Notes: generated by a model from the letters alone, not told the origin. Shown: positions 3,122-37,217, counted from the stretch's first letter. The stretch is DNA of 42,175 nt from Candidatus Micrarchaeota archaeon (GCA_964458205.1 CAYWFJ010000003.1:1-42175), one strand, 5' to 3'. A program made the numbers and translations.

Positions 3122-5344
3122 TCATTTCCCTGGGCAGTCGCTGTCGCACTTGTCAACAGCATCAGCATAGATGGAGATAACTTCGGCGCCATAGGCATAG
3201 CCCTGCCCTTCGCCCGGGTTCGGATTCGGGCGGTTGCGCACATAGCGGATATAGTTCTCCTCGCCGCTGCAGGCTGAGCTGTTGTCGCGCTGGTGTATGA
3301 ACCCCGATATTGAGGGCGGCTGCAGGCCGAAATATTTGTTTGATGCAAGGTAATAAGCTGCCCAGCCGCGGTCCTCGTCCTTTATTCCGCCATCGCAGAC
3401 CCCGGTGCCAATCTGCCCCCAGTTGCTGCCGATGAACTGTTCCGCGCTGCTTAGGGCGGTTGCGAATTTGCTGACCCCGCAGCAGATGCTCATCTCGGGG
3501 TTGAACGGGTTGTAGTTCTCGCCTCCGCACTCCTGGACCACCTGCGGCATTGCAATGCCGTCCTGCACGTAAAGATGGCCTGGAAGCTCAATGCACTGCA
3601 TGAGGCCAAACGCGCAGCGCTTCTGCCCGGAGGGGCATTCGGAATGGCAGTCTGCCGGCGGAATCCCGGCTGCATCGCAGATTTCTGACATGTAATAGTA
3701 GTTCCTTGTGTCTTCCGGCGTGGTCGGGCGCTGGTTGTTGCAGGGCCTTGCAAGCGGCACGCAGAACGATGGCAGCGAAGGGTCGAAATGGCTTTCATGC
3801 TCTATTATCGAGCGGACGAATGTCGAGCTGATGTCCGCGCTGTCTGCGATTTCCTCTATCATTGGGTAAAGCGGGCAGTGGTCGGAGCTGAAAACCTGCC
3901 CTGCGAAATTGTCATAAATGCCTGCGGATTCGGATGACAGCTTCGTTTCCGAAACGCATACCTCGCCGCAGTTGAGGTTTGCGATTTTCTCAAGGGGCAG
4001 AACCTCGCCTTGCGCCATCTCCACGCCGACTTGCGTGTTTATTTCGGTTGAAACCACGTTGTACATCTTGCTGTTGTAGAAAAGCTCGCATTTGTCCCCA
4101 TATGCATTGCGGGAGAACATGAGGGGAGTCCGGTAGCTTGATGTCCCGAAATACTGGCACATCTGGGACCATGTATTGAGCGCAGGATGCTTCTGCTCGC
4201 CCGAAGGGTAAAGCACCCCGAAATCGCAACCCTGTATTCCGTTGCACGGAAGGGGCCCGGTGCGGTCTATGAACTCATACATGCTCATGCCTATTACCCC
4301 GGATGCCGCAAGATCCGAAGAAAGTGCGAAGAGGTTCTGGTAGAAGTTGCGCACCTTTGCGGCGCTCCAGGTGCAGCTGCCGTCGCTGCTGTTCCCTTCG
4401 CTTGCCCCGGCATAAAGCCATATTGTCGGCTTGAAATAGGTGCGCAGTATGTCGCGCGAGAAGAGGTAGTTCTGCCCGATTGCGTCGTCAATGCTGCAGG
4501 TCGGGTAATCGTTTGCGCGGAAACCGAAGCCTATAAGGTCCACCTTGTCATAATAGGGGTTTGTGCTGTCTTGCGTCGGGTCTGCCGGAGGGGGCCCGAT
4601 GACTCTTTCAATCGCATGCATATCCCCGGATTTTACCGCAAGGACGGTAAGGCACTTGTCGCACGTGCCAAGGGCGTCAATCTGCGCATGTATTGCCGAG
4701 ACGTCATCGCTCCCGTTGAGGAGTATTTCGGTCGTGAGAATGGCGGGCCCTGCGTTCCCGTCTTCGAAGATTTGTGCCATCTCCTGGAAATAAGCCGCAT
4801 CCATGCGGGTCTTGTTTGAATAATAAATATACAGCGGCAGCGCGTCCCGGTCAAGCCAGCACACCGCACGCGCGATATTTGGCATGCGCGGCGCCCTTGA
4901 CGGGCTGCTCACCACCCATTTTGTCGCAAGCTGCAGCGAATAGTTGCAATAAAGGTTCGCCATGCCGGTTGAAGCGAAGGAAGGCCCGTTGCCCACCATG
5001 AAAACGCGGGGGAATGACTCGTTGTTGAGGGTCTTGTTGATGAATTCCTCCTCGTTGCACTTCTCGAATTCGCACCTTCCGTCAACCAGGGTGATGTCAT
5101 ACCATGGCAAAAGGAAATTTTTTAGCCTTGCAAAGAAATTCGTGTTGTTCTTGCACATCATGCAATAGCAGGGCTGTGGGTCGTCTATTTCCAGGCAGGA
5201 CGGGTCGGCAAGATTGTTGAAGCGGGAAAATGTCATGTCGGTGTTGCCCATCTGCTCGTTTGCGGGCACATTTAGGGCGCATCCTGCCAAAAGGAAGAAT
5301 GCGGATAGGGCGGTTGCCAGCATAAATCGCGTTTTCAGGCTCAT
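3122..5344 (-). CDS. Secreted Cys-rich lipoprotein, 740 aa, with C-terminal SLT (lytic transglycosylase-like) domain split by a Cys-rich insert
   Basis: N-terminus MSLKTRFMLATALSAFFLLAGC is a signal peptide plus lipobox. About 34 Cys by hand count. SLT motifs occur in order: SIIEHESHFDP ... AFGLMQ ... GWAAYYLASNKY. The N-terminal ~480 aa show an alternating beta/alpha pattern (PLYIYYS, PAILTTE, LTVLAVK, VDLIGFGF, PTIWLYAG, VIGMSMYE), possibly a TIM-barrel hydrolase. The start overlaps the stop of the upstream giant gene (ATGA). Confidence 0.8.
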   Translation of the reverse strand: MSLKTRFMLATALSAFFLLAGCALNVPANEQMGNTDMTFSRFNNLADPSCLEIDDPQPCYCMMCKNNTNFFARLKNFLLPWYDITLVDGRCEFEKCNEEEFINKTLNNESFPRVFMVGNGPSFASTGMANLYCNYSLQLATKWVVSSPSRAPRMPNIARAVCWLDRDALPLYIYYSNKTRMDAAYFQEMAQIFEDGNAGPAILTTEILLNGSDDVSAIHAQIDALGTCDKCLTVLAVKSGDMHAIERVIGPPPADPTQDSTNPYYDKVDLIGFGFRANDYPTCSIDDAIGQNYLFSRDILRTYFKPTIWLYAGASEGNSSDGSCTWSAAKVRNFYQNLFALSSDLAASGVIGMSMYEFIDRTGPLPCNGIQGCDFGVLYPSGEQKHPALNTWSQMCQYFGTSSYRTPLMFSRNAYGDKCELFYNSKMYNVVSTEINTQVGVEMAQGEVLPLEKIANLNCGEVCVSETKLSSESAGIYDNFAGQVFSSDHCPLYPMIEEIADSADISSTFVRSIIEHESHFDPSLPSFCVPLARPCNNQRPTTPEDTRNYYYMSEICDAAGIPPADCHSECPSGQKRCAFGLMQCIELPGHLYVQDGIAMPQVVQECGGENYNPFNPEMSICCGVSKFATALSSAEQFIGSNWGQIGTGVCDGGIKDEDRGWAAYYLASNKYFGLQPPSISGFIHQRDNSSACSGEENYIRYVRNRPNPNPGEGQGYAYGAEVISIYADAVDKCDSDCPGK

Positions 5345-8300
5345 GCCTCTCCCCTCTTCCCGTATGCCGCCCTGGCTTCGGCATCGATTGCCTGCCTCTT
5401 TGCCTTAAACCGCAATGGTGAATACATTGAAAAGCCGTTTGCAAGCTCGGTGCCCACCATGGCAAGATAGGCGGGCCTGCGCTGCCTGTGCTTGCTGTGG
5501 TCGACAAGCGCAGTGTCAATCGAATGCCCTGTGAACTGCTCGAATTTCGAGTCAAAACCGTCTATGTGGCCCCCGCCATAGACGTAATTGGCATCTATCC
5601 TGCCCCCTGCATAATGGTAATGCGGCGCGTGCTCGGAAGCTGAAGCGGTGGATTTGCTTTCCCTGAATTTCTTGAACAGCAGACCCCGGATTACGCTTGA
5701 AATCGGGCTTGCCAGCATGAGCGTTCTTGTGTTTGTGAACGAATAATCCATCATCTCGGCTTGGAGCTTCATGGTATTGAGAAGAAGCGAAGTGTCGTCC
5801 TTGTAGACTCTTCTGTAGGCATCGGAGTGCGTTGAGAACCTGTCAGAGGAGGATTTCCATCTGCCCTTCTCGTCATATTCATCGGAATAGTAATGCTTCA
5901 TCACGGAAAGGGGGCCGCCGCTTGCCCGGTCCACCTCGGATGCGATTTGCGTGAAAGGGCTGTATTTGCCAGTCAGGAGGGACACGTCTATCATGCCCGG
6001 AACCATTGGCTTCCAGTAATTTGAATTGTGGTACGCGGAATAAAGCTCCATGAAGCGGTTCCGCGAGCCGTCTTCCTGTATGTCCCTGCCGCTGTGCCCT
6101 TCCCTGACTGAAACTGGCCTGCTGTCATATATTTTCGAAATCGGCTTGAAGTATTTTTTCCAAAGCTCCTCTTTCCGCGCATGGTCGTCTGTTGTGCGCC
6201 ATTCTTCGTATACTTCCAGCATCTTTGGGTCGCTTTTAAGCATCGTGTCGAGCTTGCGCTCGGCTTGGAGATACCTGTCAAGAGGGCGGGTAAGCCCGCT
6301 AAGAAGCGCCGGGGTTGCGTAGTGCTCGCTGTCTGTGAAAATGCTGCGCACGCCCCTGCGCACAATTCCTTCCTTGGTGGGGTCGCTTGGGCCTGCGCGC
6401 ATATATGCCCCTATGGCCACGCTGAGGGTGGATGAATCAAGCATGTTCTGCAGACGTGCGTGTGTATAGTCTGTCGGGACGGTGATAAGCGCCTTGAAAA
6501 TCGCAAGCTTGTCCTGCGTCCCCCATTTTGACCCGTTAAGCGAGTCTGTTTCGAAGTATGCTGGGTAAAACGAGCCTTTCCTTGCTCCGAAGCTTATGAA
6601 TTCGTTCTGGAACTTGTGCACGGTGCTCGCAAGCGAAATCGGGAGATGCATCGCCCGCTCCCATCCGGAGTTTATGGCCCAAAAAGTCGGGCGCTCATAT
6701 ACGTTCTGCCCGGTCTGGTATCCGACCATCATGGTATTCTCATAGCCCCCGCCTATTGCAACGCGCGGGTCCCTCATCACGCTCGATTCTGCAACCTGGA
6801 AAAAATCGCTTGCAAGCCCCTGCCGATAGCCGCTGTCAAAAAGCCCCATTACTGAAACCAGGTTCCGCCTGGAGCCGTACGGGGAATCGTGGGTCCCCAC
6901 CCAGTCCCTTGCGATGTCGTTCAATGCCTTGAATTCGTGCTTTGCGTCCGCATATGCCGCCTTGTATTCCTGCCTTATTGCCTTGGTTTCATCCTTGCGC
7001 GCAAGGTAATCCTCCCTGGAAATGAGCCTGTCCTTGTAAAGCGAATTGAGGGCCTTGTCCATGAGCTTTGCGGAATAGTATTTCGATTCCTCCGCAGCAA
7101 TTGCTTCCAGCGTATTTGCGGCAATACCCCTCCTGTAATTCCAGCCGACTGCCCAGGAGAATAACCCTCCGGAAGACTGTATCTTGCCCATTCGGTCGGC
7201 TATCAGGTCCTTTTGCTCGTCGCTCCCCCCTATCTTTTTGTATTCATCGGTATTGTTCTTATCAAAGAAATGGGTTTTTGGGTCGAATGTGAAGCGCTTG
7301 CCCCCAGCCCTCGTCTCCCCTTCCAATTCGTTCTTGAACTCCCAAAGCACGAATCTCGCCTGGGTCTGTGCGGTGTACCAGTTGCGCATGTTCTGCTTCC
7401 TTGTTTCATAGCCCGCGGTGACGAATTCCGACAAAGCGCTGCCCAAGGAAAGCTGCGCACGGATGACAGAGTTCCTGGATTTTGTATCCCCTGCGCCAAA
7501 CACGCCCTGGCTTTCAGGCTTGCCGGAGTATTTGAGGTCTGAGACTGTGACGGCCTTTACCTTTGCATTAGGGTCATAGCCCCCGCCGATTTGGGTGCCT
7601 GTGAGGGACATGCCTGCAAGCACCCGGAGGTCCTTGTTTGATTCGGCAAATGCCATTATCCCTGCGGTTGACGCATCCTTGCCTGGATGCGCATAAATCC
7701 AGCTTGCATCTCCCCCGGGGGTCTTATGCTGGACAAGTATTGCTATGTTCATCAATCGGTTCCCGTAGCTTGAGGATTCGTACCTTGAGATAAGCGGCGC
7801 CAGGTCTACGACCTTTCCTTTCCGGTAGACGCCATCCTCTATGCCGCAGGCTTTCAGGACGTCCTGGTTGTGCTCCAGCATCACCATTCCCCCCCTCCTG
7901 TCGGACGACAGCATGAAGCCGACCTTGCGCCTGTAGTCTGAGAAAGTGTAGCCCCTCTTGATAAGCTCGCTGTAGGCATCCCCGTTGAAAACGGGCTTTC
8001 CTTCTGCATCGTATTTCAGCTTGCCTTTCATGTCCACTGTTGTAAACTTGGCATCGTAATACTGGCTGTCCTTGTTCACCAATTGGGAAAAGAACATGGC
8101 AAGCATGCTGCGGTCCTCCCTTGCCTTGTTCAGGTATTTTGACATGTCGCTGTATACGAAGTTCGCCCATGTGGAGCCAGATAGGCCATGCCATGCGGCT
8201 TGTGATGCCATATTGTCCCAGCGCCTCGCCCGCAGAAGCGCCTCGTCAACCGAACGGTCGTATTGTATGTTCTGGGTCCTGAATTCAGCCCTCTTTGCCG

Positions 8301-11289
8301 CAAGCTCCGCAACCTCCCCTTCCCCGGCTTTGCGCTCCAAGAACCGCAGGTTGCCTGCTGAAAATGGGTCTTTGAGTATGCTGAAAACTTCCCGATTGCC
8401 CCTTTGGGGCCTGAAAAGCTCGGAAACACCGATTGCCCGGGCTTCCCATTGTTTCGCAAAGCTTGTGCCTTCATTGAGAAGATTGACGAATGCCCTTGCG
8501 GACACGGCTTCGGCCGCATGCGCCGCAGCCTGGCGCCGCACATCTTCAGGAATCTTGTCAGGAGGCACGCCCTTGGCAAGCCTTGCCTGCGCGGATGAAA
8601 GCTCGCCATGGTAAAGCGCCTGAAGCTCGGAGCCAAGCTTCCCGTCAATAACCGCCTGCGTCAGCCTTTCGAGGAAATGCTTCCTGCCTGCGCTGTTCGG
8701 CCGCATCAGGATGTCGAAATCATCCATGTCCTTTATTGAATAGGGGTTTCCGCCCTCGGAAACAATCCCAAGATGCTTCAGGCGGTCGTTGAGGTAAAAC
8801 GACAGCGGCCCGCCCTCGCCAAAAATGCACGCCTTCATCAGCCGGCTTACCCTCTCCTGGAAGCTCTCGTCTGCTTTTGCCTTGGAGCCTGAATTGATGC
8901 TGTCTGCGATGCCTTTCAGCTGGGAAAGGGCGGCTTCGCCGTCTTTCAGGTATTTTTCCTTGAAGCGGGCTGCCTTTGAATCGAAATCGGCTGCGGAGAG
9001 CTTAGATATGCCTTCGCCGAAAATCACGTCTATCTGCTTGTCCACCTTCTTAGCCAGCTCCCTGAAGGAAGGCAGGTTTGCCCTGTTCTCGACCAAAAGG
9101 GCGAAGCGCTCGGCTTCTTTCATCTTTTCTATGTCCGCCGGGGAGAGTTTTTTTCCGTTGGCGACCAGTGCGCCGCTTTCTGCCAATGCCTTAAGCTCCG
9201 CCTCGGCTTTCTTGAGAAGCGGGAAATTCCCTTTTTCATACGAGAGGTGGGTGCGCATTGATTCGACATCCTCTCGAGTCAGTGCCTTGAATTCCCCGTT
9301 TTTGAAATATATCATGCAGTCGCGGGCAAGCCCGCCTATGATGCCCGCAAGGAGCCCTGTCTGCTCCTCGATTTTCTTCCGCTCAGGCCCCTGCTTTTGG
9401 AGAGAAGCAAGCGCAAGGAGCGCTTTCTCAGGAGTAAGTGTCCCTGAATTGAGCCGTTCAATCACTCCTGAAACATCCGCTTCGCGTTTTTCGATGCCCG
9501 AGAGGAATGAAGCGATATGCGAAAATGCCTTCTTGTCGAGATTTTCAAGCCTTTCAAAGGCCTTCTTGGCGCTGTTAGGGTCAGACGTATTGAGGCTGGC
9601 AAGGATGCTATTGAGGGTGTCTTTCTGGTCCGATGTGAGCGATGGGTTTTTCAGGGCGCTTTTCACCAGCTTGATAGCCTCTTCGCGGGTTTCGTGGCTG
9701 CCGCGGGTCGAAACCTGGCTGATGAGAAGGGCCAGAAGCTGGTTGTACATTATGGTTGTGCTTGCCGCAAGGCCGATACGGTATTCCTCCGCCCTGTCGA
9801 GTATTTCGTTTTTCTTCTTGTCCGCAAAATCCGATTTCTTCATGAATTCGTCGAATTTCCCCGGGCTTAGCTTCTGGAATAAGGCGCCAAGGGAATTCTT
9901 GATGCGTTTCCCTGCGTCCTCTTTGTCCTGCTTGGTGAATGCAAGGAACGCAAGCGCGCGCCCGGTCTCCGAGCCTAGCCTCTTGGCGCCTATCTTGCTC
10001 GCCCTGAACTGCATGTATACGTCCATCGCCTTGACTGGGAGATTGACCACGCCCTTAACTATCGGGATTTTCTGTATGATGCGCGCGCCCTTGCTCTCGT
10101 CGAATGCGACCACTTTCTTCCTGGCGCGGTCAAGGCGGTTGTTCAGCCATTTCTCATAGCCCTTGCTCCCCCCGCCCCTTGCAAGCTTCAGTGCGCTGAC
10201 CAGCTGGTCCCCGGCAGCCATGACATGCGTCAGGCCTTCGCCGCCCATTTTTTGTATTGAATCCCATTTTTTTGCAACCCTGCCCGATGCATCTTTGGGC
10301 CTGCCGCGCAGTATTTCCCTAAGGATCGCATTTACCCTTTCCGACCCCTCTTTGCTGAGCGGCGAGCCGCCGGAAGTCTCCTTGTAGTATTCACGCAGCG
10401 CCTCTTTGACCTGTTCGCGGGCTTGGCGCCTTGCTTCCTTCCTGTCCTTCCCGCTTTTGCCCCGCGTCCGCATGTCCGCGGCCTCCCTTGCTGCGGTGAA
10501 AAGGGACTTGGTCGCCTTCCTGTTCTGGATTTCGACCCGCTTGATCATCGAATTTATCATCATGGGCAATGTCGGGCCTTTCAGCCTGTATTGCCTGCTT
10601 TTTGGGAGGCGGGGGGTGGTAAGGTCGAAAAGCGAGAGCGGATCCCTGCCGGAATAATACATTGAGGCAAGGAGCAGCCCCACGACAAGCATTGCCGGAA
10701 AGCAGTATGCTGCGTTTGAGGAAAGCGCCCCGGATATTGCCGGGCCAAGCGCAGATAAGGCGGCATTGTTCTTCGGGCAGGCGGTTATTGCCTGGAAGGA
10801 GGGCAGTATCGAAACCTCCCCGCTGGTGTTGCCTTCATAGCGGACCTGGAGAAGCCCGCATGATTTTTGGGACTCGATGTCGGCAACCCCCCCTGATGCG
10901 TTGATGTGATAGGCAAAAGAGCAGTTCGCTTCGCCTTTTGCGTTGGCGATTGCCGGGTTGCAGATGACGTTGCCGGATGAATCCGAGAGATTGTGCCCGT
11001 CAAAAGAGAAAATGAGGCGGGCTCCGGCAACTGGGGCAAACCCGAAGCGCACATCGTCTATGGATTCGTAGGATGACGGATCCATCAGGACGCCCACGTC
11101 CTGCTCCAGGCTTGGGGAAACCCTTTGGTGGAATTCGCTTGCGTTTGCAAAGCTTATCTTCACATAGGCGGTTTGGCCGGATGAAGAGATTGTGATGAAC
11201 GTGCGGGCGCCCTCGTCAGATGCGGGCAGCGCGCAATTGGCAGCGGAAAATAAAAGCAGCAGTATGAACAGCGGTGTTGCCCTGCGCAT
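5341..11289 (-). CDS. Giant membrane-anchored protein (~1982 aa): signal peptide, ~170-aa ectodomain, one TM helix, ~1750-aa charged/coiled cytoplasmic region
   Basis: ORF 5341..11313. ATG 11289 gives MRRATPLFILLLLFSAANCALP, a typical signal peptide, and fits a leaderless transcript from the TATA at 11313-11323. The ectodomain has Cys and N-x-S/T sequons (NAS, NLS, NCS, NAS, NTS). TM helix is AAYCFPAMLVVGLLLASMYYS, followed by K/R-rich sequence (positive-inside). A long KE-rich helical region follows. No Walker A seen by eye. Confidence 0.8.
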   Translation of the reverse strand: MRRATPLFILLLLFSAANCALPASDEGARTFITISSSGQTAYVKISFANASEFHQRVSPSLEQDVGVLMDPSSYESIDDVRFGFAPVAGARLIFSFDGHNLSDSSGNVICNPAIANAKGEANCSFAYHINASGGVADIESQKSCGLLQVRYEGNTSGEVSILPSFQAITACPKNNAALSALGPAISGALSSNAAYCFPAMLVVGLLLASMYYSGRDPLSLFDLTTPRLPKSRQYRLKGPTLPMMINSMIKRVEIQNRKATKSLFTAAREAADMRTRGKSGKDRKEARRQAREQVKEALREYYKETSGGSPLSKEGSERVNAILREILRGRPKDASGRVAKKWDSIQKMGGEGLTHVMAAGDQLVSALKLARGGGSKGYEKWLNNRLDRARKKVVAFDESKGARIIQKIPIVKGVVNLPVKAMDVYMQFRASKIGAKRLGSETGRALAFLAFTKQDKEDAGKRIKNSLGALFQKLSPGKFDEFMKKSDFADKKKNEILDRAEEYRIGLAASTTIMYNQLLALLISQVSTRGSHETREEAIKLVKSALKNPSLTSDQKDTLNSILASLNTSDPNSAKKAFERLENLDKKAFSHIASFLSGIEKREADVSGVIERLNSGTLTPEKALLALASLQKQGPERKKIEEQTGLLAGIIGGLARDCMIYFKNGEFKALTREDVESMRTHLSYEKGNFPLLKKAEAELKALAESGALVANGKKLSPADIEKMKEAERFALLVENRANLPSFRELAKKVDKQIDVIFGEGISKLSAADFDSKAARFKEKYLKDGEAALSQLKGIADSINSGSKAKADESFQERVSRLMKACIFGEGGPLSFYLNDRLKHLGIVSEGGNPYSIKDMDDFDILMRPNSAGRKHFLERLTQAVIDGKLGSELQALYHGELSSAQARLAKGVPPDKIPEDVRRQAAAHAAEAVSARAFVNLLNEGTSFAKQWEARAIGVSELFRPQRGNREVFSILKDPFSAGNLRFLERKAGEGEVAELAAKRAEFRTQNIQYDRSVDEALLRARRWDNMASQAAWHGLSGSTWANFVYSDMSKYLNKAREDRSMLAMFFSQLVNKDSQYYDAKFTTVDMKGKLKYDAEGKPVFNGDAYSELIKRGYTFSDYRRKVGFMLSSDRRGGMVMLEHNQDVLKACGIEDGVYRKGKVVDLAPLISRYESSSYGNRLMNIAILVQHKTPGGDASWIYAHPGKDASTAGIMAFAESNKDLRVLAGMSLTGTQIGGGYDPNAKVKAVTVSDLKYSGKPESQGVFGAGDTKSRNSVIRAQLSLGSALSEFVTAGYETRKQNMRNWYTAQTQARFVLWEFKNELEGETRAGGKRFTFDPKTHFFDKNNTDEYKKIGGSDEQKDLIADRMGKIQSSGGLFSWAVGWNYRRGIAANTLEAIAAEESKYYSAKLMDKALNSLYKDRLISREDYLARKDETKAIRQEYKAAYADAKHEFKALNDIARDWVGTHDSPYGSRRNLVSVMGLFDSGYRQGLASDFFQVAESSVMRDPRVAIGGGYENTMMVGYQTGQNVYERPTFWAINSGWERAMHLPISLASTVHKFQNEFISFGARKGSFYPAYFETDSLNGSKWGTQDKLAIFKALITVPTDYTHARLQNMLDSSTLSVAIGAYMRAGPSDPTKEGIVRRGVRSIFTDSEHYATPALLSGLTRPLDRYLQAERKLDTMLKSDPKMLEVYEEWRTTDDHARKEELWKKYFKPISKIYDSRPVSVREGHSGRDIQEDGSRNRFMELYSAYHNSNYWKPMVPGMIDVSLLTGKYSPFTQIASEVDRASGGPLSVMKHYYSDEYDEKGRWKSSSDRFSTHSDAYRRVYKDDTSLLLNTMKLQAEMMDYSFTNTRTLMLASPISSVIRGLLFKKFRESKSTASASEHAPHYHYAGGRIDANYVYGGGHIDGFDSKFEQFTGHSIDTALVDHSKHRQRRPAYLAMVGTELANGFSMYSPLRFKAKRQAIDAEARAAYGKRGEA

Positions 11290-11312
11290 GGTTGCTTTTT
11301 GGAAATCCTGCA

Positions 11313-11323
11313 TTTATATATTA
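11313..11323. promoter_or_regulatory. Shared bidirectional TATA box for the two divergent operons
   Basis: TTTATATATTA sits in the 69-nt spacer between ATG 11289 (minus) and ATG 11359 (plus). It is about 25 nt from ATG 11289 and about 25 nt from the GGAGG SD at 11346-11350. Confidence 0.55.
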
Positions 11324-11358
11324 TGATGCTTTAATCATTGCAACTGGAGGGCTGGCGG

Positions 11359-12732
11359 ATGCTTGATTTCATTCTCATGACCCCTGAAATGCTCCTTTCA
11401 AGCTCGGGCGTCCTCATAGCCCTTGCCACTGCGATATCCATCATTGCCCTCTCGTTCATGGCGGGTGAATTCTTCTCAATGCCCACTCTCCGCGGATTTG
11501 CAAAGGCGGAACTCTATGAGCTTGGCGTAACCGCAGTCGTGATTGCCATATCCATAATGCTCATAACCCCGGGGGGGCCGTTCGACATGATTACGCGCGG
11601 CTTTCTGGATCCGGGAACCCCTGCGGATAGGGCATGCAAGGAATGGAAATCAATCCATGGGCAATACGACCCGGTTTCGGGGAATTACCCGGACGGCAAC
11701 CTCGCTTTTGCGCATGCGGACTATTTCATAGGGTGCAGGGTGGATTTCCTGACCCAGATGACATCGGCACTCACCTTGGGCATCCTGGACACGAACAGCG
11801 GGATAATGATAGCCAAGCTGACCACCGCCTACATGAACCTGATGCTGATGGAGTTTTTCATGGGGTTCCTCTCCACGGTCAATTTCCATCTGACGATTCA
11901 GACGCCCATATTGATAGGGATAGACATAGGGTTGCCGCCCCACGCCGGGCTCACCCCGCTGCTGGAATTCAACACCACCCTTACGGACATGGTGGGCAGC
12001 ACCATTGCCGCGATGACCGCAAAGAAGATGCTGCTGAATTTCATAGAGGAGAATGCAATCGGGGTTTTCCTGGTGCTTGGCATTTTCCTGCGCGCGCTCC
12101 CGTTCACCCGGAAAACCGGGTCCACGATAATAGCGATTGTGTTTGCCGCCTATTTCGTTTTTCCGACATCGGTTCTCCTGAACCAGCAGATATGGCGGGC
12201 GATAGAAAACCCCCCTGGCCCGCCAGGCTGCCTAGAGGTCGGGACTGCGTGCACGGCGGATTCGGAATGCTGCTCAGGCAATTGCGCAATGGGGGCGGGC
12301 AGATGCGCTGCGATGCTGAGCGATTTTGACCATGTGAAATCGTTCATAAACACGTGCTACGGAAAAAGCGAGGCTGAAGTCCGCGATTCGCTTGACAGCC
12401 AGGCGCAGCACCAGCAGGCCCAGCTGGAGCAGTATTTTGACGACCAGGGAGAGGAGGCAGTATCCACAAGAACCACCAGCCGCCTCAAAAGCTCGCTTGG
12501 CACTGCGGGAAACGTCATAGTCGGCCCGATGCTCAGCATGAACATCCCCATCGGGAGCGGCCCGCTGACTTTCGGGTTTGTCGAAAAGGCCATGAATGAC
12601 ATGGGCAGGCTCATGCTCATAATATTGATATTCACAGTGATAGAAATACTGGTCACCATAACCCTCATGAAGGACTTTGCCATCATGATAGGCGGTGAAC
12701 CGCGGGTTCTTGGCATAAGCAAGCTGGTGTGA
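11359..12732 (+). CDS. Polytopic membrane protein, paralogue P1 of 6 (LRxxPxTRxxG family, unnamed), with knottin-like 6-Cys loop
   Basis: ORF 11338(TTG)..12732. ATG 11359 is preceded by GGAGG. Multiple hydrophobic helices. Core motif FLRALPFTRKTGSTIIAIVFAAYFVFP (from 12088). Loop CLEVGTACTADSECCSGNCAMGAGRC (12229-12306). C-terminal TM plus tail IGGEPRVLGISKLV. Confidence 0.8.
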   Translation: MLDFILMTPEMLLSSSGVLIALATAISIIALSFMAGEFFSMPTLRGFAKAELYELGVTAVVIAISIMLITPGGPFDMITRGFLDPGTPADRACKEWKSIHGQYDPVSGNYPDGNLAFAHADYFIGCRVDFLTQMTSALTLGILDTNSGIMIAKLTTAYMNLMLMEFFMGFLSTVNFHLTIQTPILIGIDIGLPPHAGLTPLLEFNTTLTDMVGSTIAAMTAKKMLLNFIEENAIGVFLVLGIFLRALPFTRKTGSTIIAIVFAAYFVFPTSVLLNQQIWRAIENPPGPPGCLEVGTACTADSECCSGNCAMGAGRCAAMLSDFDHVKSFINTCYGKSEAEVRDSLDSQAQHQQAQLEQYFDDQGEEAVSTRTTSRLKSSLGTAGNVIVGPMLSMNIPIGSGPLTFGFVEKAMNDMGRLMLIILIFTVIEILVTITLMKDFAIMIGGEPRVLGISKLV

Positions 12733-12734
12733 CC

Positions 12735-13658
12735 ATGGCGTTTGGGGGATTCATCCTGGAAATTTTTGCTGCGGGGGGCATCGGAGATGTCGCGCTGTCC
12801 CTTTTCGCGGTTTCCATAGCAGTAATGGCTTCGATAATCGCGCTTGCCTACATGGCATCGCAATTCTTCAGGAAGCCCGAATACGAGGGTTTTGTAACAC
12901 TTGAGATATACCAGCTCATCGTATCCGTCCTGCTGTTCGTCTCAATAGGGGGGGTCGCGGTTTTTGCAAATTCCCTGATGTATGCGTTTTCTGGCTCTGA
13001 CCCGATAGACACGGGCAGAGCATATCTCTCATATGTAAGCGAGCAGATTGCGCTTCCGGTTATGGTCGGGTTTGAGACATTGAAGCTCACAATGCAATTC
13101 ATAGGTTCGATAAGCATGAGATGGGGCGCCAGCGTGTGGGGGGTGGTGATGGTCCCTTTCGGGGCATGCCAGGTGCTTGAAAAGGTGGCGGACGTTATCC
13201 TGATGATATCGGTGCCATTCATATCAAGCCTCCAGGTGCAGATGGTAATCCTCGAAATGATTGAGGGTTTGGCGCTCTCATTCGTCCTCCCTGCTGGCGC
13301 GCTTCTTAGGATATTCCCCCCGACAAGGGACGCGGGCACCTTCCTGATGTGCTCCGCGCTTGCAGCGCTCACGGTCTACCCGTTCACATATGTGATGCAT
13401 GACAAGATAGTCAGGGTGATGGTGTCTGGTGAAAGCGAGAATCCGACAGCAAACGACATGCTTCAGAGCCAAAACCCCGGATTTGCAAGGGTAATGTCCG
13501 CAAGCTGGGCGATTGACCCGGAAAAAATGCTGTTCAGGCCCCTGCGCCTCCTAAGCTACCTTGTCCTTCAGGGGGCTTTCCTGCCTGCGCTGAGCATGGT
13601 CATAACCATTTCGTTCATAAAAGGAACCACCAAATTCGTGAGCCAGAAATTCGGGTGA
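12735..13658 (+). CDS. Polytopic membrane protein, paralogue P2 of 6
   Basis: The start (GTG 12729 or ATG 12735) overlaps or abuts the P1 stop. Core motif LLRIFPPTRDAGTFLMCSALAALTVYPFTYV (13305 onward). The N-terminal TM region aligns by eye with P1 and P6 (..IIALAYMASQFFRKPEYEGF..). Confidence 0.78.
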   Translation: MAFGGFILEIFAAGGIGDVALSLFAVSIAVMASIIALAYMASQFFRKPEYEGFVTLEIYQLIVSVLLFVSIGGVAVFANSLMYAFSGSDPIDTGRAYLSYVSEQIALPVMVGFETLKLTMQFIGSISMRWGASVWGVVMVPFGACQVLEKVADVILMISVPFISSLQVQMVILEMIEGLALSFVLPAGALLRIFPPTRDAGTFLMCSALAALTVYPFTYVMHDKIVRVMVSGESENPTANDMLQSQNPGFARVMSASWAIDPEKMLFRPLRLLSYLVLQGAFLPALSMVITISFIKGTTKFVSQKFG

Positions 13659-13662
13659 GCCT

Positions 13663-13779
13663 TTGGGTAAACCGGACGCATCCTCAAAAACGGCGCTTCT
13701 TGCCCTCTTTCTTGCATTAGCCATGCTGGCTTGCGGATGCACCGGCTCTGATGGGGGGCAAAGCGGTATAGTCCTGTAG
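13663..13779 (+). other. 38-codon lipoprotein-signal-like ORF in the same frame as P3, ended by TAG 13777-13779 (N-terminal extension of P3, or a micro-ORF)
   Basis: TTG 13663 is preceded by GGGTGA (13653-13658). The product is MGKPDASSKTALLALFLALAMLACGCTGSDGGQSGIVL*. The P3 reading frame continues directly after the TAG. This piece resembles the N-terminal extension of P4 (MMKTPTARQAAFAIALVAIALAMFASMPCG). Confidence 0.5.
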
Positions 13780-13806
13780 ATTTTTGGTTGGGAAAACCTC
13801 GTTGCA

Positions 13807-14973
13807 GTGGCTCTTGCCGCAACAGCAAGCCTTTTGGGCCTTGCATATATCGCCGCATCTTTTGTGAATGATGACAAGCTTAAGGCATGGGTCAAAAAAG
13901 AGGCAGGGCAGCTGGTTTTCTCAATTATGATAATAATATGCGCAATTGCGATCGTTGACAGCATGGATTTCTGGCTTAAAACATTCAGCCTTGCAGGCTC
14001 TCCGGCCTGGCAGGACTATGTTGGAAACCACATATGCTGCGACCCTGCCGTTGTGCCCCAGTGCCAGGCGGGGCTATGGAAACGCCCGTGCCATGTGGAG
14101 CTCGCGATGGACCACCTGCAGTTTGTCTATGAGACCCTGCGGAAGAATGTCATGACTTATCTTTGGAATTACTCGGCCATTGCAACGCTTGCCAATCTCC
14201 ACACCAGCATAAACATCATGAATAGGCCCGACTTCGGGAGCCTGAGCCTGAGCCCGTTAACCTACCTGTCCGCAGGAGTTGACTATTTCACCATACTCAT
14301 TGGGCTTGCAACCAAAGCCATGATGATGACCCGCACGCAGCAGGCAGCCCTGGATTATCTGCATTATCCAGTATTCGGGGCTTTCATGTCCATGGGGCTC
14401 GTGCTGCGCATACTCCCATTCACAAGAAAATTGGGGGGCATGCTAATAGCCATATCGCTTTCGTTGTATGTGGTCCTGCCGATGTTTTACGTCCTAAACA
14501 GCGCAATATTATGGGGCTTCATTGCGGCGCCTGCAGGGGGAACGCCCTCAACAGTGGGGGCGTCATACGACACCGGCGCATATACGCCCGGGTATGGCGC
14601 AGGGGAAGCTGAAAACTATGATGCGGTTGACCCTGAGAATGTCCTTGAAGGGGGCTATGTTGCGAATATAGACGTATGCAACAGCACAGGGGCCGATGCC
14701 GAACAGGCAAGGGCTGAAAGGCAGCAGGATGAGGGATTTATCCAAAGCAACTGGAAAATGATGCGCGGGACAAAGTGGCATGCCGGCCTGCAGACAATGC
14801 TTACCGGCCCCGGGCTCTCGTATGATGGCCCGCTCGGGGTCCTTGCGATGATAATGGTATTCTCGACCGTGCTCCCGTTCCTTGGACTGATGACTTCGCT
14901 TGCCGCATTCAAGGTCCTTTCCCCGCTGCTCGGGGGGGATGTCGAGTTAGGGCTGCTCTCGAGGCTGATATGA
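13807..14973 (+). CDS. Polytopic membrane protein, paralogue P3 of 6 (possibly disrupted or read-through; see 13663..13779)
   Basis: ORF from GTG 13807, which has only a weak SD. Core motif VLRILPFTRKLGGMLIAISLSLYVVLPMFYV. Cys- and sequon-containing loops (HICCDPAVVPQCQ, CNSTG). Tail LGGDVELGLLSRLI. The stop overlaps the P4 start (ATGATG). Confidence 0.7.
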   Translation: MALAATASLLGLAYIAASFVNDDKLKAWVKKEAGQLVFSIMIIICAIAIVDSMDFWLKTFSLAGSPAWQDYVGNHICCDPAVVPQCQAGLWKRPCHVELAMDHLQFVYETLRKNVMTYLWNYSAIATLANLHTSINIMNRPDFGSLSLSPLTYLSAGVDYFTILIGLATKAMMMTRTQQAALDYLHYPVFGAFMSMGLVLRILPFTRKLGGMLIAISLSLYVVLPMFYVLNSAILWGFIAAPAGGTPSTVGASYDTGAYTPGYGAGEAENYDAVDPENVLEGGYVANIDVCNSTGADAEQARAERQQDEGFIQSNWKMMRGTKWHAGLQTMLTGPGLSYDGPLGVLAMIMVFSTVLPFLGLMTSLAAFKVLSPLLGGDVELGLLSRLI

Positions 14974-16292
14974 TGAAAACTCCCACTGCAAGGCAGGCTG
15001 CTTTCGCAATTGCGCTGGTCGCCATCGCGCTGGCGATGTTCGCAAGCATGCCTTGCGGAAATTATTTCGGGTTTGACGTTTTCGGCACCAACCCGCCTAA
15101 CGTGGTCACCTGCGACCAGCCGGCAAACGGACTTTTCTGGCTTGAGCTCACCATAATCGCGCTTGCGCTCTCGGTGGCGCTCGTCTCTGCAGCCTGGATA
15201 CTCAACGGCGTTTTTGGCGGCCCGAAATACAACGAATTCCTGAAAGAGCGCCTATGGAGCATGCTTGAGACCGCGGTGATAATGGGCATTTTCATAGCCA
15301 TGCTGGTTTCGCTCCAGCAATATGGGAACGACAATCTCGACACGGCGAGGGCATACACAAAAATAATACGGAATAGCGCGGTGGAGGATTTTGGGAAAAC
15401 GATAGCGGGAACTGCCCTGTTTTCATTCGTATCGAATGCCAACCCGAAAATACACCTTTTCAAGGGCCATTTCGGGTCCTATATCGATTTCCAGCTGGCA
15501 CCCATGTTCAAGCCGATATTCGACATGATGGGGCTGATAATACAGCTCCAGACCACGGTTGTGCTTCAGTGGTTTGCCCATGACTACCTGCTCTGTTTTG
15601 CAAAAAACTACCTGCTGACCCTCCTTTTGCCAGTCGGGCTTTTCCTTCGCGGGATGGGCATCAAAACCGCAGGCAACGCCATGATGGGGGTTGCGATTGC
15701 CCTTTATTTTGTCTATCCGTTCATGATTGTCCAAATAGGGGAGATGGTCACAAAACACTATGAGAATGAGATTTCGGCGCTCACCATTGCAGAGGGCAAC
15801 ATACACCTGAGCCTTTGCTTCAGCAGCAAGCCCATATGCTGCATGGGCGGGACCCCTGACCCGGTCAACGATACCCTGGTCATACCGAACGGGAATGGGT
15901 TCATAAGCGTCAAAAAAGTCCTTACCAACCCCCTCCTTGGTTGCAGCTACTCGACAACCAATGTAAGGATATGGGAAAGCGCGGGAGGGGTGGTGGCAAG
16001 CAGCGCAGCCTTCATGCTGATGAAAGCCATGATGTCCGGCTCGGGCACGTCATCGAGCAGCACGGGCTTGAGCACCGCTTCAGGGTTCATGAATATCCTG
16101 ATGCTGCTGGCCCTTTTCCCGCCCATGGTGATGCTGGTGCTTAGCTTCATATACGGGCTTGCTTATTTCTTCTTCATCGTAAGCATGGTGCTGCCGATAT
16201 TCGCCATATTCATAACTCTCACGCTCGCAAAGGAGATTACCAAGGCGCTTGGGACGGAAATAGACCTTTCAGCGCTTGAAAAGCTGATATGA
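14970..16292 (+). CDS. Polytopic membrane protein, paralogue P4 of 6 (with extra N-terminal signal/anchor)
   Basis: ATGA overlap with P3. Divergent core FLRGMGIKTAGNAMMGVAIALYFVYPFMIV. Cys loop SLCFSSKPICCMGG..VNDT. S/T-rich stretch SGSGTSSSSTGLSTASG. Tail LGTEIDLSALEKLI. Confidence 0.78.
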   Translation: MMKTPTARQAAFAIALVAIALAMFASMPCGNYFGFDVFGTNPPNVVTCDQPANGLFWLELTIIALALSVALVSAAWILNGVFGGPKYNEFLKERLWSMLETAVIMGIFIAMLVSLQQYGNDNLDTARAYTKIIRNSAVEDFGKTIAGTALFSFVSNANPKIHLFKGHFGSYIDFQLAPMFKPIFDMMGLIIQLQTTVVLQWFAHDYLLCFAKNYLLTLLLPVGLFLRGMGIKTAGNAMMGVAIALYFVYPFMIVQIGEMVTKHYENEISALTIAEGNIHLSLCFSSKPICCMGGTPDPVNDTLVIPNGNGFISVKKVLTNPLLGCSYSTTNVRIWESAGGVVASSAAFMLMKAMMSGSGTSSSSTGLSTASGFMNILMLLALFPPMVMLVLSFIYGLAYFFFIVSMVLPIFAIFITLTLAKEITKALGTEIDLSALEKLI

Positions 16293-16307
16293 GGACAGGG
16301 TGCCATA

Positions 16308-17366
16308 ATGGGATTGAACATTGCCGAAAACATCTGCGCCCCCATCCTGTCCGGGGCCCCGTCGGATTTTCCTGGAAGTTTCGGGATTCTTGGCGCTGAC
16401 TGGCTGCAGCTGACTTTCCTTGCCCTCCTTGCATCGCTCCTAGCTCTTTCTATAATATACATGCTTTCATTCTTCCTTAAGCAGAACGCAGCAGCAGCGT
16501 GGGCGAAATTCGAGCTCTTCCAGCTTTTTGCAACAGCCATGCTGGTGGTCATGACCTCTTCCGTGCTGATAGTCGGGATGTGCTCGTTTGACATGCGCAT
16601 TCTTGACCCGGACAGATATGCGGATCCGCAAAACCCGAATCGGCCCATGAACATGCTGGATATTGTGGACAGGTATTTTGGCGAGCTTGAGAAGGCGGGC
16701 GGGATGCTTTTTGCCGCCTTCCTGTTCATCATCAATATCCTGACCAACCTATTCAAGGCGATGTTCCTAAGCTCGCCACTGGGAGTGGGGGGCAATGAAA
16801 GCCCTCTTGAATCGCTTATGCAGCTCAACAACATGTTCTTCATCCTGATAAGCGGATTCGTCATCTCGTTCCTCATGCTTGGCGTGCAGACCAGGATGGT
16901 GGAGTACATCAGCATAGCTGCGCTCTATTACCTGTTTCCCTTCGGGGTTTTTTTCAGGGCGTTTGAGCCGACCCGCGCTTTTGGCGGAACCCTGATAGGC
17001 CTCTCAATCTCCCTTTTCCTGTTCTACCCCGCCCTCCTGGTTTTCAACGACTATGTTGTTTACGGGCCGGTTTCCGAAATCAACCAGGAGCTGGAAGATA
17101 GCATAGATAGGGGCGACACGCAGGTTTCTGGGCAGCAAGGCGGGATGCCCGACAGCCAGGTAATAGTGAATGGAATAGAAAGCGGCGACCTGGCATCCGG
17201 GATAGGCGGTTCCGTCCTTGTGGTTTTCAAGCCGCTCATGCTGTATTTCGTGGCAGCGGTCGTCCTGCCCATAATCAATTTCATAATACTGGTGGAAGTT
17301 GCAAGGGGGCTCACGCGCCTCCTGGGAGAAGAGGTGGACATAACCAACCTCACGAGGCTGATATGA
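16308..17366 (+). CDS. Polytopic membrane protein, paralogue P5 of 6
   Basis: ATG 16308 is preceded by GGGTG. Core FFRAFEPTRAFGGTLIGLSISLFLFYPALLV. Tail LGEEVDITNLTRLI. The stop overlaps the P6 start. Confidence 0.78.
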   Translation: MGLNIAENICAPILSGAPSDFPGSFGILGADWLQLTFLALLASLLALSIIYMLSFFLKQNAAAAWAKFELFQLFATAMLVVMTSSVLIVGMCSFDMRILDPDRYADPQNPNRPMNMLDIVDRYFGELEKAGGMLFAAFLFIINILTNLFKAMFLSSPLGVGGNESPLESLMQLNNMFFILISGFVISFLMLGVQTRMVEYISIAALYYLFPFGVFFRAFEPTRAFGGTLIGLSISLFLFYPALLVFNDYVVYGPVSEINQELEDSIDRGDTQVSGQQGGMPDSQVIVNGIESGDLASGIGGSVLVVFKPLMLYFVAAVVLPIINFIILVEVARGLTRLLGEEVDITNLTRLI

Positions 17367-18361
17367 TGGCATTTGATTTGACTTCGTCCGGATGGATAGG
17401 CATTTCGGTGCTCGTGGCCCTGGTTTCCCTCTTCATCACCGTGCTTTTGCATATGCTCGCCCAGGCGTTCAGCCTCCAGAGCCTTGGCATGTGGGCAAAA
17501 TCCGAATATGCACAGGTGGCGGTCAGCTTCCTGATAATCTTCTTCGCGGCAGTGATGCAAAGCGCAGGTGCGGAAGTGGTCAGCCAGGTCACAGCCGAAG
17601 TTGCGGCGGCATCGGGGAACATGATGCTCACCTCCAGCATGTCGGCGAATATGGACCCGGTGGAAATAGCCAAGGCGTACATAAACAAAATCACCGGTTG
17701 CCAAATAACGCTTTACAAAATAGCATACTGGCTCAACTTCATCATGGAGCCGCTGAGCAAAATCAGCCTGGAGGCCATGGGTTTTGAAGGGATTACTGGG
17801 GGCGCCCTCTCAGGATATGTCTCTTTTTTCCACTACGTAATGAATAACCTTACATATGTGATCCTCTTCAACTATGTCCAATACAGCGTGCTTCTGCTCT
17901 CTAAATACTCCATGCTTTACCCGGTACTCCCAATCGGTCTTGTTCTTCGCGCGTTCGCGCCGACCAGGGGGGTTGGAGGGCTGATGGTTGCGTTCGCGCT
18001 TGGCTTCGCATTCGTGTTCCCATTCACGTACGTGCTGGTGGTTGCAATAACCCCGAACACCACATACACCATGTGCAATGAGATAACCCTAACCGCTGGC
18101 GATTTGCCACAAAAAGACGAGCAGCCTTGCTACAACAGCAAGGCGGGAACAAGGGAACAGTCTTTCAGGCTAAAAAGCAACATGCAGAAAATATCCGGGA
18201 TAGTCGGATTCATGCAGAATGCGATAGGGATAATCTTTCTGCAGGCGGTAATCTACCCATTGGTCTCGTTGATTATGACTTTCACGTTCATCAGGCAGAC
18301 CAGCTCGCTGTTCGGAGCCGACCTTGCAGAGATAGGGCGCGGGCTCATCAAGATAATATAG
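17363..18361 (+). CDS. Polytopic membrane protein, paralogue P6 of 6
   Basis: ATGA overlap with P5. Core VLRAFAPTRGVGGLMVAFALGFAFVFPFTYV. Loop TPNTTYTMCNEITL..QPCYNS. Tail FGADLAEIGRGLIKII. Confidence 0.78.
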   Translation: MMAFDLTSSGWIGISVLVALVSLFITVLLHMLAQAFSLQSLGMWAKSEYAQVAVSFLIIFFAAVMQSAGAEVVSQVTAEVAAASGNMMLTSSMSANMDPVEIAKAYINKITGCQITLYKIAYWLNFIMEPLSKISLEAMGFEGITGGALSGYVSFFHYVMNNLTYVILFNYVQYSVLLLSKYSMLYPVLPIGLVLRAFAPTRGVGGLMVAFALGFAFVFPFTYVLVVAITPNTTYTMCNEITLTAGDLPQKDEQPCYNSKAGTREQSFRLKSNMQKISGIVGFMQNAIGIIFLQAVIYPLVSLIMTFTFIRQTSSLFGADLAEIGRGLIKII

Positions 18362-18379: not shown

Positions 18380-18736
18380 CTAGTGCAGGTTGGCCTTTTT
18401 TGGCGCCGCCCCGCCATTTTGCGCCAGGGCTTTCCTGCAAGGATACGGCATGTCCCTTGCGCTTGGAGGGTTTTTTGCCTCAAGAGGATTTTTATCTTGG
18501 GCCGCTGCTTCCCTCGCATGCGGCGCCTGGGCCTTTTTCTCCTTGACCGCGTTTCTCGCGGCCTTGCCTATTGCGTAAGGGACTGTGAAAAGCCCGGCGG
18601 CGATTTTGAAGATGGCAGTGGCAAGGGATACTGTGATGTTTGAAAGCGTGATTAATGCCGGAACCCCGATGGCAAGCGCTGCGCTGACCGCAGCTGCCCC
18701 GACGATTATGGATGCGCCGATGGAATAGGGATCCAT
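18380..18736 (-). CDS. Small membrane protein (two TM helices plus basic tail), unknown function
   Basis: ORF 18380..18784. The internal ATG 18736 gives MDPYSIGASIIVGAAAVSAALAIGVPALI..IFKIAAGLFTVPYAIG, then a K/A/P-rich tail. Convergent with P6. Confidence 0.4.
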   Translation of the reverse strand: MDPYSIGASIIVGAAAVSAALAIGVPALITLSNITVSLATAIFKIAAGLFTVPYAIGKAARNAVKEKKAQAPHAREAAAQDKNPLEAKNPPSARDMPYPCRKALAQNGGAAPKKANLH

Positions 18737-18865
18737 GCTTTTGGATATGCATGGCTCGCATTTATAAAAAATGCGCCCAGGCAAGTCCCATCCGCTTTAA
18801 AAACTATCATTCAAATGTTTAGCGGCTCCTGTGTGGGGAGACTGAACTGAAGCCCTGGGTTTTTC

Positions 18866-21728: not shown

Positions 21729-21825
21729 ATGGAAATGGAAAAGGGGATTCGCATCCCTTCCGGCTTATCCTTGATTTGCCCGCTTAATCCTTGCTTTTCT
21801 TTTTTCGCATCAGCTTGCCTTTTTT

Positions 21826-22398: not shown

Positions 22399-22416
22399 GG
22401 CTTTCGCTTTTTGTGC

Positions 22417-22430
22417 CTATATTTTTAAAG
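22417..22430. promoter_or_regulatory. TATA box upstream of the tRNA 5' fragment / LAGLIDADG ORF (possibly bidirectional with 21826..22398)
   Basis: CTATATTTTTAAAG. Its 3' edge is about 26 nt upstream of G22456, the first base of the tRNA-like 5' segment. Confidence 0.5.
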
Positions 22431-22455
22431 GGGAAGCGCTCCAAGGAACCCACGC

Positions 22456-37173: not shown

Positions 37174-37217
37174 GCATATATTCCTTATTTGCCCTTTTCA
37201 CGCGGGATGGTGAAGCT

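Follow-up and report, generated by a model that had tools for sequence, protein, structure and literature searches.

A locus in the genome of a Candidatus Micrarchaeota archaeon raises the question of what task is served by eight adjacent genes encoding a giant single-span protein, a cysteine-rich lipoprotein with a lytic-transglycosylase-type (SLT) domain and six related polytopic membrane proteins. The locus occupies positions 3122-18361 of a stretch of 42,175 bp (GCA_964458205.1, CAYWFJ010000003.1:1-42175), and we refer to this whole stretch as the window. It appears to be an entire contig of a Candidatus Micrarchaeia (DPANN) archaeon and encodes the archaeal markers ribosomal protein L15e, the RNase P p30 subunit, fibrillarin and Dph2, as identified with Pfam. 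Much of archaeal diversity belongs to the DPANN archaea, whose way of life depends on contact with other cells, and we know of no symbiont-encoded DPANN contact apparatus that has been defined at the molecular level. An earlier note on this DNA, made by a model from the sequence alone, had proposed that the locus encodes a dedicated surface machine, possibly for attacking or attaching to a partner cell. For seven of the eight predicted proteins no relative could be detected in any characterised family. The explanation we tentatively favour is a lineage-specific envelope complex, in which a core in the membrane, a scaffold in the cytoplasm and a lipoprotein that cuts a wall would act together, probably at cell-cell contacts.

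An eight-gene block conserved across Micrarchaeota

The block is made up of two divergent operons. The minus strand carries the genes for the giant protein (Giant1982; 5341..11289) and for the 740-residue lipoprotein (Lipo740; 3122..5344), with the stop codon of the first overlapping the start codon of the second by 4 nucleotides (5341-5344). Beyond a TATA-like element the plus strand carries the membrane protein genes P1 to P6, and all the open reading frames (ORFs) lie where the earlier note had placed them. Pfam searches of the window ORFs identified the flanking genes as AdoMet decarboxylase (speH) and SecF/SecD, the housekeeping neighbours that the note had named. P1 (11359..12732) encodes 457 residues, with an alternative TTG start at 11338, and P2 (12729..13658, 309 residues) begins at a GTG that overlaps the P1 stop codon. 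P3 spans 13663..14973, P4 (14970..16292, 440 residues) overlaps P3 in an ATGA, P5 (16308..17366, 352 residues) follows after a gap of 15 nucleotides and P6 (17363..18361, 332 residues) overlaps P5 in a further ATGA. Overlaps of 4 nucleotides between stop and start codons are therefore present at three of the five P junctions (P1/P2, P3/P4 and P5/P6). The claim that the P genes are mostly coupled in this way holds for these three, but not for P4/P5, nor for P2/P3, where the junction is obscured by an in-frame TAG.

The two operons diverge from an intergenic region of ~69 bp that contains the TATA-like element TTTATATATTA at 11313..11323, recognised from the sequence and not assigned to a strand. 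Its first eight nucleotides, TTTATATA at 11313-11320, form one of just three TTTAWATA matches in the 42-kb window. Of 29 related loci, 10 have this class of 8-mer in the spacer that separates the giant gene from P1, and in L001 and L005 it takes the palindromic form TTTATATAAA. The TATA box that had been reported between the two operons is thus located, rare in the window and recurrent elsewhere. The element lies ~25 nucleotides from the giant ATG (11289) and ~35 nucleotides upstream of a GGAGG that precedes the P1 ATG (11359). The recurrence and the spacing fit a candidate shared bidirectional promoter, which would produce a leaderless mRNA for the giant and a GGAGG-led message for P1.

The related loci came from a P1 profile scan of GTDB species representatives, which returned 29 loci on 28 distinct contigs (L001 and L010 being the same). 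When all their ORFs were classified against the window proteins, 16 of the loci proved to contain all eight genes, each as a single orthologue, with order and orientation unchanged. The remainder are truncated by the end of a contig and show this order over the part that is present, and among the 29 no locus long enough to reveal a break has one. The co-occurrence of P homologues with a giant protein and an SLT lipoprotein in other genomes, which the earlier note had suggested looking for, is therefore observed, and the absence of a conserved neighbourhood in related genomes, which it had said would count against its proposal, is not. Two of the loci are labelled Woesearchaeota or Patescibacteria, and the others Micrarchaeota or 'uncultured archaeon'. 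Named homologues of the cluster proteins likewise belong to Micrarchaeota (Micrarchaeia, Anstonellaceae and Bilamarchaeaceae), apart from those filed as 'uncultured archaeon' and the two Patescibacteria/Woesearchaeota contigs, which we take to be mis-binned. Judged by isolate and sample names, the metagenome-assembled genomes (MAGs) that carry the block come from lakes, groundwater and hot springs among many habitats.

The giants of the closer relatives share 26-32% identity with the window protein, their lipoproteins 38-47% and their P1-P6 proteins 35-54%, and the flanking genes of the same relatives are 62-71% (SecF/SecD) and 80-89% (speH) identical. In a distant clade P6 is followed not by SecFD but by genes for glycogen synthase, a PLD-like protein and a carbamoyltransferase. 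As the flanks change while the block stays, the conserved unit is the eight genes and not their neighbourhood, and SecFD adjacency, being lost in this clade, was rejected as a functional link. On one contig the gene for isoleucyl-tRNA synthetase (IleRS) is inserted between the giant gene and P1. On four Bilamarchaeaceae-like contigs (L034, L038, L039 and L040) the giant (1504-1696 residues) and lipoprotein genes adjoin those for topoisomerase VI (Topo VI), and the adjacency of the pair is kept even where P genes are not nearby. A small PLD-like gene also recurs near this pair, just as one follows P6 in the distant clade.

The separation of the P genes from the giant-lipoprotein pair in some lineages would fit an explanation in which the synteny has no common function behind it, the two operons merely sharing a promoter region and encoding unrelated proteins. 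We consider this very improbable, since the module is kept while both flanks change, conservation extends to the short spacer with its TATA element, and all eight products are predicted envelope proteins found, as far as seen, in the same lineage only. The comparison instead supports the view that the eight genes form one conserved, co-oriented and tightly packed functional module across Micrarchaeota. A viral or defence-island origin was also considered and was rejected on the lack of PHROGs and PADLOC matches, the syntenic position in the core genome and an unremarkable GC content.

The membrane protein family, the giant and the lipoprotein

Pairwise blastp similarity among P1-P6 is weak. 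We compared them by hhalign using profiles of 21-31 sequences per paralogue, each comprising the window copy and its orthologues, and all 15 pairs gave probabilities of 97.0-99.6%, with E values from 1e-10 to 6e-25. At the level of sequence profiles this is decisive for P1-P6 being true ancient paralogues of a single family, in agreement with the six tandem paralogous membrane proteins of the earlier note. All six share two N-terminal hydrophobic helices, a helix-loop-helix containing G..LR.FP.TR..G, a last transmembrane helix with a conserved proline and a C-terminal tail (..G.E....L.(K/R)LI). P1, studied with an AlphaFold2 (AF2) model and a conservation map, has at least five hydrophobic helices. 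P2 is the smallest paralogue and corresponds to the core only, P4 has an extra N-terminal hydrophobic segment, and P5 and P6 were placed in the family by profile comparison, both also with a conservation map. The conserved positions cluster in the helices, in two short basic loops, one of them carrying G..LR.FP.TR..G, and in the C-terminal tail. Conservation is low in the long insert that precedes the last helix, where most of the cysteines are found. On the basis of hydropathy, charge and cysteine distribution we predict five or more helices for the P proteins, and would place the basic loops and the tail in the cytoplasm and the inserts outside the cell.

Within the P1 insert, residues 298-321 (window 12250-12321) form a knottin-like pattern, C-x6-C-x5-CC-x3-C-x6-C, in which the cysteines are nearly invariant. 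This cluster gave weak matches to conotoxin and atracotoxin families (E 0.04-3), and AF2 confidence in the region is, in places, moderate to low. The P1 model as a whole, built from 37 sequences, has a predicted local distance difference test score (pLDDT) of 75.5 and a predicted template modelling score (pTM) of 0.71, with long helices that extend well past the hydrophobic stretches. A Foldseek search of this model against the PDB and BFVD gave no match (best E ~0.4), so VirB6, SecY, FliPQR-type and transporter folds are unsupported. PDB profile searches with the P1 and the P2/P5/P6 alignments produced no credible match, and Pfam searches of 43 P2/P5/P6 sequences (the three window copies and 40 orthologues) gave scattered single matches only.

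The N-terminus of P3 differs from those of its orthologues. The uninterrupted ORF runs from a GTG at 13807 and encodes 388 residues. From an in-frame TTG further upstream, at 13663, the sequence would encode a lipoprotein signal peptide, a feature shared with those P3 orthologues that were examined, in which lipoboxes are also present. The reading frame between the two is broken by the TAG (13777-13779) at a position where the orthologues have tryptophan. The TAG could be a sequencing error or a nonsense polymorphism, or P3 could be genuinely truncated in this organism. In several loci small hydrophobic Gly/Ala-rich ORFs with Lys-rich tails are present between P6 and SecF on varying strands, for example at window 18380-18784 (minus strand) and at 17171-17356 (plus strand) in L001.

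The giant ORF can be read from an alternative ATG at 11313, giving 1990 residues (5341-11313, minus strand); its most likely start is the ATG at 11289, from which 1982 residues are encoded. The ORF, hydropathy and conservation agree with the architecture proposed earlier. A hydrophobic, signal-like N-terminal segment is followed by an ectodomain of ~170 residues, one further transmembrane helix at ~189-210, a strongly basic juxtamembrane stretch and then ~1750 charged residues. The first 200 residues hold six of the nine cysteines and five of the eight N-x-S/T sequons. The best conserved segment comprises the transmembrane helix and the juxtamembrane motif GRDPLSLFD.TTPRLP (0.82 identity, the motif being invariant), with further patches at ~1100-1125, ~1500-1550 (ESS.MRDPR...VGYQTGQ.VYERP) and ~1726-1765 (SG.DI.EDGSR.RF). 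Pfam searches of 19 giant sequences (the window copy and 18 orthologues) gave scattered single matches only, and a PDB profile search with the giant alignment gave no credible match. Residues 1001-1875, when modelled with AF2, are largely helical, but the model is of low confidence (pLDDT 59.9), with the region of the most conserved motif poorly modelled, and Foldseek found no match to it. Searches with structure models, which had been suggested for all eight proteins, were thus carried out for P1 and this part of the giant, and neither found a relative. A second giant ORF in the window (25391-30943) was considered as a paralogue of Giant1982 and ruled out, since the two share no similarity and the second has no transmembrane segment.

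Lipo740 was characterised from its ORF, a 35-sequence alignment and Pfam. It contains 34 cysteines, many of them invariant across the alignment, and its signal peptide ends in ...FFLLAGC. The sequence LLAGC fits the lipobox pattern [LVI][ASTG][GA]C, with G21 and C22 at least 90% conserved in the 35 orthologues, and lipid anchoring is predicted. The 4-nucleotide overlap with the giant gene, the cysteine count and the lipobox all agree with the coupled, cysteine-rich lipoprotein of the earlier note. A conserved N-domain of unknown fold (~40-450) precedes a divergent SLT domain (~495-690). The SLT motifs previously noticed are present in the window copy as IEHESHFDP, with the catalytic Glu-Ser, and FGLMQ, the G-L-x-Q motif. 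Across the 35 sequences E517, S518 and F520 are nearly invariant, and G580 and Q583 invariant. The window copy is itself below the Pfam threshold, yet PF01464 (SLT) is matched by 14 of the 35 orthologues (best E 4.3e-7), precomputed PF01464 matches exist for two relatives, and one relative carries the NCBI name 'transglycosylase SLT domain-containing protein'. From these motifs and matches we take the C-terminal domain to be a divergent SLT (GH23) lytic transglycosylase and a predicted enzyme.

When the lipoprotein profile was run exhaustively with HMMER against 1.84 billion representatives, it retrieved no more than 289 proteins at E<=1e-3, of which 183 were at E<=1e-30. A PDB profile search with the lipoprotein alignment gave no credible match, and neither this search nor Pfam on the orthologues detected relatives of the ~400-residue cysteine-rich N-domain, for which we suspect a TIM-barrel glycosidase fold from strand-like conserved motifs. 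Some relatives carry additional domains. In P0271, a Micrarchaeia relative (L036, 2209-5742), the SLT domain (27.8 bits) is fused with NlpC/P60 (35.3 bits), a relative in L019 (1036-3762) has a GDSL-like C-terminus, and in two distant loci a gene for a YkuD_2 (L,D-transpeptidase-type) protein adjoins the lipoprotein gene (L028, 205-1263; L027, 1-995). SLT, NlpC/P60, YkuD and GDSL together represent the classical set of murein-acting domains. Taken with the giant and the P family, the prediction from hydropathy, charge and cysteines upholds the earlier proposal of parts lying outside the cell, in the membrane and in the cytoplasm.

Comparison with known systems

Searches of all eight window proteins against Pfam, NCBIfam, PHROGs and PADLOC found nothing significant. 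Confident assignments to unrelated, characterised functions, which had been named as evidence that would overturn the earlier proposal, were therefore not found. No conserved Walker A motif is present in any of the eight. The earlier statement that the motif is absent stands for the giant, the lipoprotein, P1-P3, P5 and P6, while P4 has one pattern match (AVEDFGKT), which lies in a poorly conserved loop.

For type IV secretion systems (T4SSs) one expected component was found, a VirB1-type wall hydrolase, represented by the SLT domain in 14 of 35 lipoprotein orthologues and by SLT with NlpC/P60 in P0271. Pfam detected no VirB4-family or VirD4 ATPase among the other window ORFs scanned. A tblastn search with a HerA/VirB4-class ATPase had no match in the window, nor, L037 excepted, in any of the loci fetched for comparison (L001-L042). 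PF04610 (VirB6/TrbL) and other T4SS families were not matched by the window P1-P6 at E<=1 or by the 43 P2/P5/P6 sequences at E<=0.01, and the likeness of P1-P6 to VirB6/TrbL that had been proposed therefore finds no support from Pfam, PDB profiles or Foldseek. Pilin (VirB2) and relaxase families were not detected by Pfam among 28 window ORFs, small ORFs not having been examined systematically. With respect to Ced/Ted, no CedB/TedB-type ATPase was found, and CedA, judged by Pfam alone, had no match. For type IV pili and the archaellum there was no T2SSE or T2SSF Pfam match in the cluster or the scanned neighbours, though no dedicated search for class III signal peptides was made. With no ATPase and, for T4SSs, no VirB6-type subunit, membership of these systems fails, which agrees with the mismatch that the earlier note had described.

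It is nevertheless conceivable that the locus encodes a highly diverged T4SS or Ced/Ted-like conduit, with a VirB1/CwlT-type lipoprotein, VirB6-like proteins changed beyond recognition in P1-P6 and ATPases encoded elsewhere. Conjugation hydrolases of monoderms pair SLT with NlpC/P60, P0271 has this pair, and polytopic proteins are encoded beside the hydrolase. In L037 (10001-17235) a relative of the lipoprotein, P0273 (1094 residues, SLT), is followed by a 272-residue protein with two N-terminal transmembrane segments and a 517-residue HerA/VirB4-class ATPase. However, no giant or P gene lies near P0273, and the ATPase adjacency is unique to L037 and missing from its nearest relative, L036, and was therefore rejected as a link to the module. 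The window and every fetched locus other than L037 lack the ATPase, no pilin, relaxase or coupling protein appears among the ORFs scanned, and P1-P6 and the 40 orthologues show no TrbL/VirB6 or other T4SS Pfam match, nor the P1 model a PDB match with Foldseek. We regard a diverged conduit of this kind as distinctly unlikely.

The closest described relatives are VirB1/CwlT-type hydrolases, and this for one domain of one protein as judged by sequence. SLT/GH23 hydrolases of the VirB1/CwlT/PrgK type in conjugative T4SSs are often fused to NlpC/P60 or CHAP domains. Like them, Lipo740 has the catalytic Glu-Ser and the G-L-x-Q motif in an SLT domain, is predicted to be tethered to the membrane on its extracytoplasmic side, and has genes for polytopic membrane proteins as neighbours. 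Unlike them, it has the cysteine-rich N-domain, always pairs with a giant bitopic protein and has no detectable VirB4, VirD4, VirB6, VirB8 or pilin partners. P1-P6 resemble VirB6, TrbL and CedA in being multi-pass proteins with large predicted extracytoplasmic inserts, encoded in an operon that adjoins a wall hydrolase, but they share no detected sequence or fold similarity with these proteins and are six paralogues with motifs of their own instead of the product of a single gene.

Large SLT-domain proteins that are close in concept have also been described in other DPANN archaea. The fam00969 proteins of Pacearchaeota and Woesearchaeota are single extracellular proteins of up to 3000 residues (Castelle et al. 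2021, PMC8204110). In our locus, by contrast, the SLT domain is on a 740-residue lipoprotein, the giant is separate and predicted to be mostly cytoplasmic, six membrane paralogues are linked to the pair, and the phylum is a different one. Archaeal peptidoglycan hydrolases that kill bacteria have been documented (PMC12352652); Lipo740 is likewise an archaeal protein with a domain of the murein-degrading type, but it is predicted to be lipid-anchored and belongs to an eight-gene membrane module. For the terms searched, the main text of that study makes no mention of SLT, DPANN or Micrarchaeota.

The existence of these bacteria-killing enzymes (PMC12352652), together with the murein-type domains in our set, would suit a role in nutrient scavenging or antibacterial attack, in which the hydrolase digests the walls of living bacteria or necromass and P1-P6 import the products or anchor the enzyme. 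The reduced biosynthesis and few known transporters of DPANN archaea (PMC8975820) point the same way. Against this, P1-P6 resemble no transporter family in Pfam, NCBIfam, PDB profiles or Foldseek, the enzyme is predicted to be tethered to the membrane and not secreted, and the 1750-residue cytoplasmic protein is left unexplained. Scavenging or antibacterial attack accordingly receives little of our belief. Literature searches returned no description of the eight-gene cluster. On the failed membership tests and this result, and on the evidence of Pfam, PDB profiles and Foldseek, which leaves very remote homology possible, we rate the module as lying outside the known kinds of system and as apparently undescribed.

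Possible roles of the module and neighbouring genes

In the envelope complex that we tentatively favour, P1-P6 would form a hetero-oligomeric membrane core, with one copy of each suggested by the one-to-one orthology and tight operon packing. The giant, a bitopic protein of ~220 kDa, would probably dock onto this core through its transmembrane helix and juxtamembrane motif, with its 1750-residue helical cytoplasmic domain acting as a scaffold or adaptor, and the disulfide-rich lipoprotein would cut a glycan wall locally through its SLT domain. Most likely the wall of a partner cell would be opened or gripped at the contact site, allowing the membrane core to mediate exchange. The cluster encodes no ATPase, and the complex would therefore be static, powered by the proton-motive force or dependent on an ATPase encoded elsewhere.

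Several observations argue for this explanation. The genes are kept as a module of one-to-one orthologues as the flanks change, with overlapping or closely spaced reading frames and a shared TATA-like spacer. P1-P6 are paralogous with conservation clustered in the core, and conservation of the giant peaks at the transmembrane helix and juxtamembrane motif. The catalytic Glu-Ser of the SLT domain is retained, relatives carry NlpC/P60, GDSL and YkuD_2 modules, and the giant and lipoprotein genes stay adjacent. Cultured Micrarchaeota need direct contact with host cells (PMC8975820, PMC11329633).

A number of points weigh against it. The cluster is single copy, syntenic and vertically inherited, which is more like a housekeeping locus than a host-interaction locus of fast turnover, and it encodes no energy source. 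No P gene lies within 10 kb of the giant-lipoprotein pair on the Bilamarchaeaceae-like contigs. The window Lipo740 itself scores E=0.059 and 13.4 bits against PF01464, where the cut-off is 21.3 bits. The known hosts of cultured Micrarchaeota, Thermoplasmatales and Sulfolobales, are archaea without murein, so a murein-type hydrolase has no obvious substrate on the host. Finally, the intercellular nanotubes of ARM-1 are derived from the host and not from the symbiont (PMC11329633).

The pattern of inheritance is accommodated almost as well by a housekeeping machine that builds, remodels or divides the cell's own envelope, whether S-layer, glycan layer or membrane. Here the lipoprotein would trim the cell's own glycan and the giant would connect the membrane core with processes in the cytoplasm. 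The block is phylum-wide, single copy and vertically inherited, lies among housekeeping genes (speH, SecFD, TopoVI) and is conserved in MAGs from many habitats. The parts of the P proteins predicted to face the cytoplasm are the most conserved, and GH23 enzymes are not strictly specific for murein. Set against this, we know of no archaea that make murein, and the accessory domains of the relatives (NlpC/P60, YkuD, GDSL) are the classical murein toolkit. The module includes no glycosyltransferase, flippase or S-layer gene, and its proteins have no similarity to known envelope-biogenesis families in Pfam and NCBIfam. We judge a role confined to the cell's own envelope somewhat unlikely. A bolder version of the partner-cell role would make P1-P6 a new hetero-hexameric conduit which, with the giant and the lipoprotein, serves Micrarchaeota as an apparatus for tapping partner cells, and this we consider unlikely.

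If this bolder version is true, the eight genes would be the first candidates at the molecular level for a connection between DPANN archaea and other cells, and the murein toolkit would imply that many Micrarchaeota engage murein-walled bacteria and not only archaea. Even with a housekeeping role the locus would represent a new archaeal envelope complex and a new membrane protein family of six paralogues. The retention of a murein-type lytic transglycosylase, accompanied in some lineages by NlpC/P60, YkuD or GDSL, is a puzzle given that the known hosts lack murein. Genomes of Micrarchaeota are usually ~1 Mb, and if that is the size here a module of ~15 kb is a large investment. The genes are testable candidates for existing co-cultures, provided that the cluster is present in those strains.

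Outside the block the window contains several other ORFs of note. The second giant ORF (25391-30943, minus strand) encodes 1850 residues of helical-repeat-like composition, with no Pfam match. A 328-residue ORF at 22489-23475 (plus strand), which has an N-terminal helix-turn-helix (HTH) and a weak LAGLIDADG_3 match, may encode a free-standing homing-endonuclease-like or regulatory protein. At 21341-22453 (minus strand) the longest ORF, of 370 residues, overlaps the 3' end of SecD. Its counterpart in L001 and L003 is a DUF2085 membrane protein of 199-239 residues, and the true start of the window ORF is therefore probably further downstream. At 37149-38240 (plus strand) a kinase-like AAA_17/18 domain is fused to a dCMP/cytidine deaminase domain.

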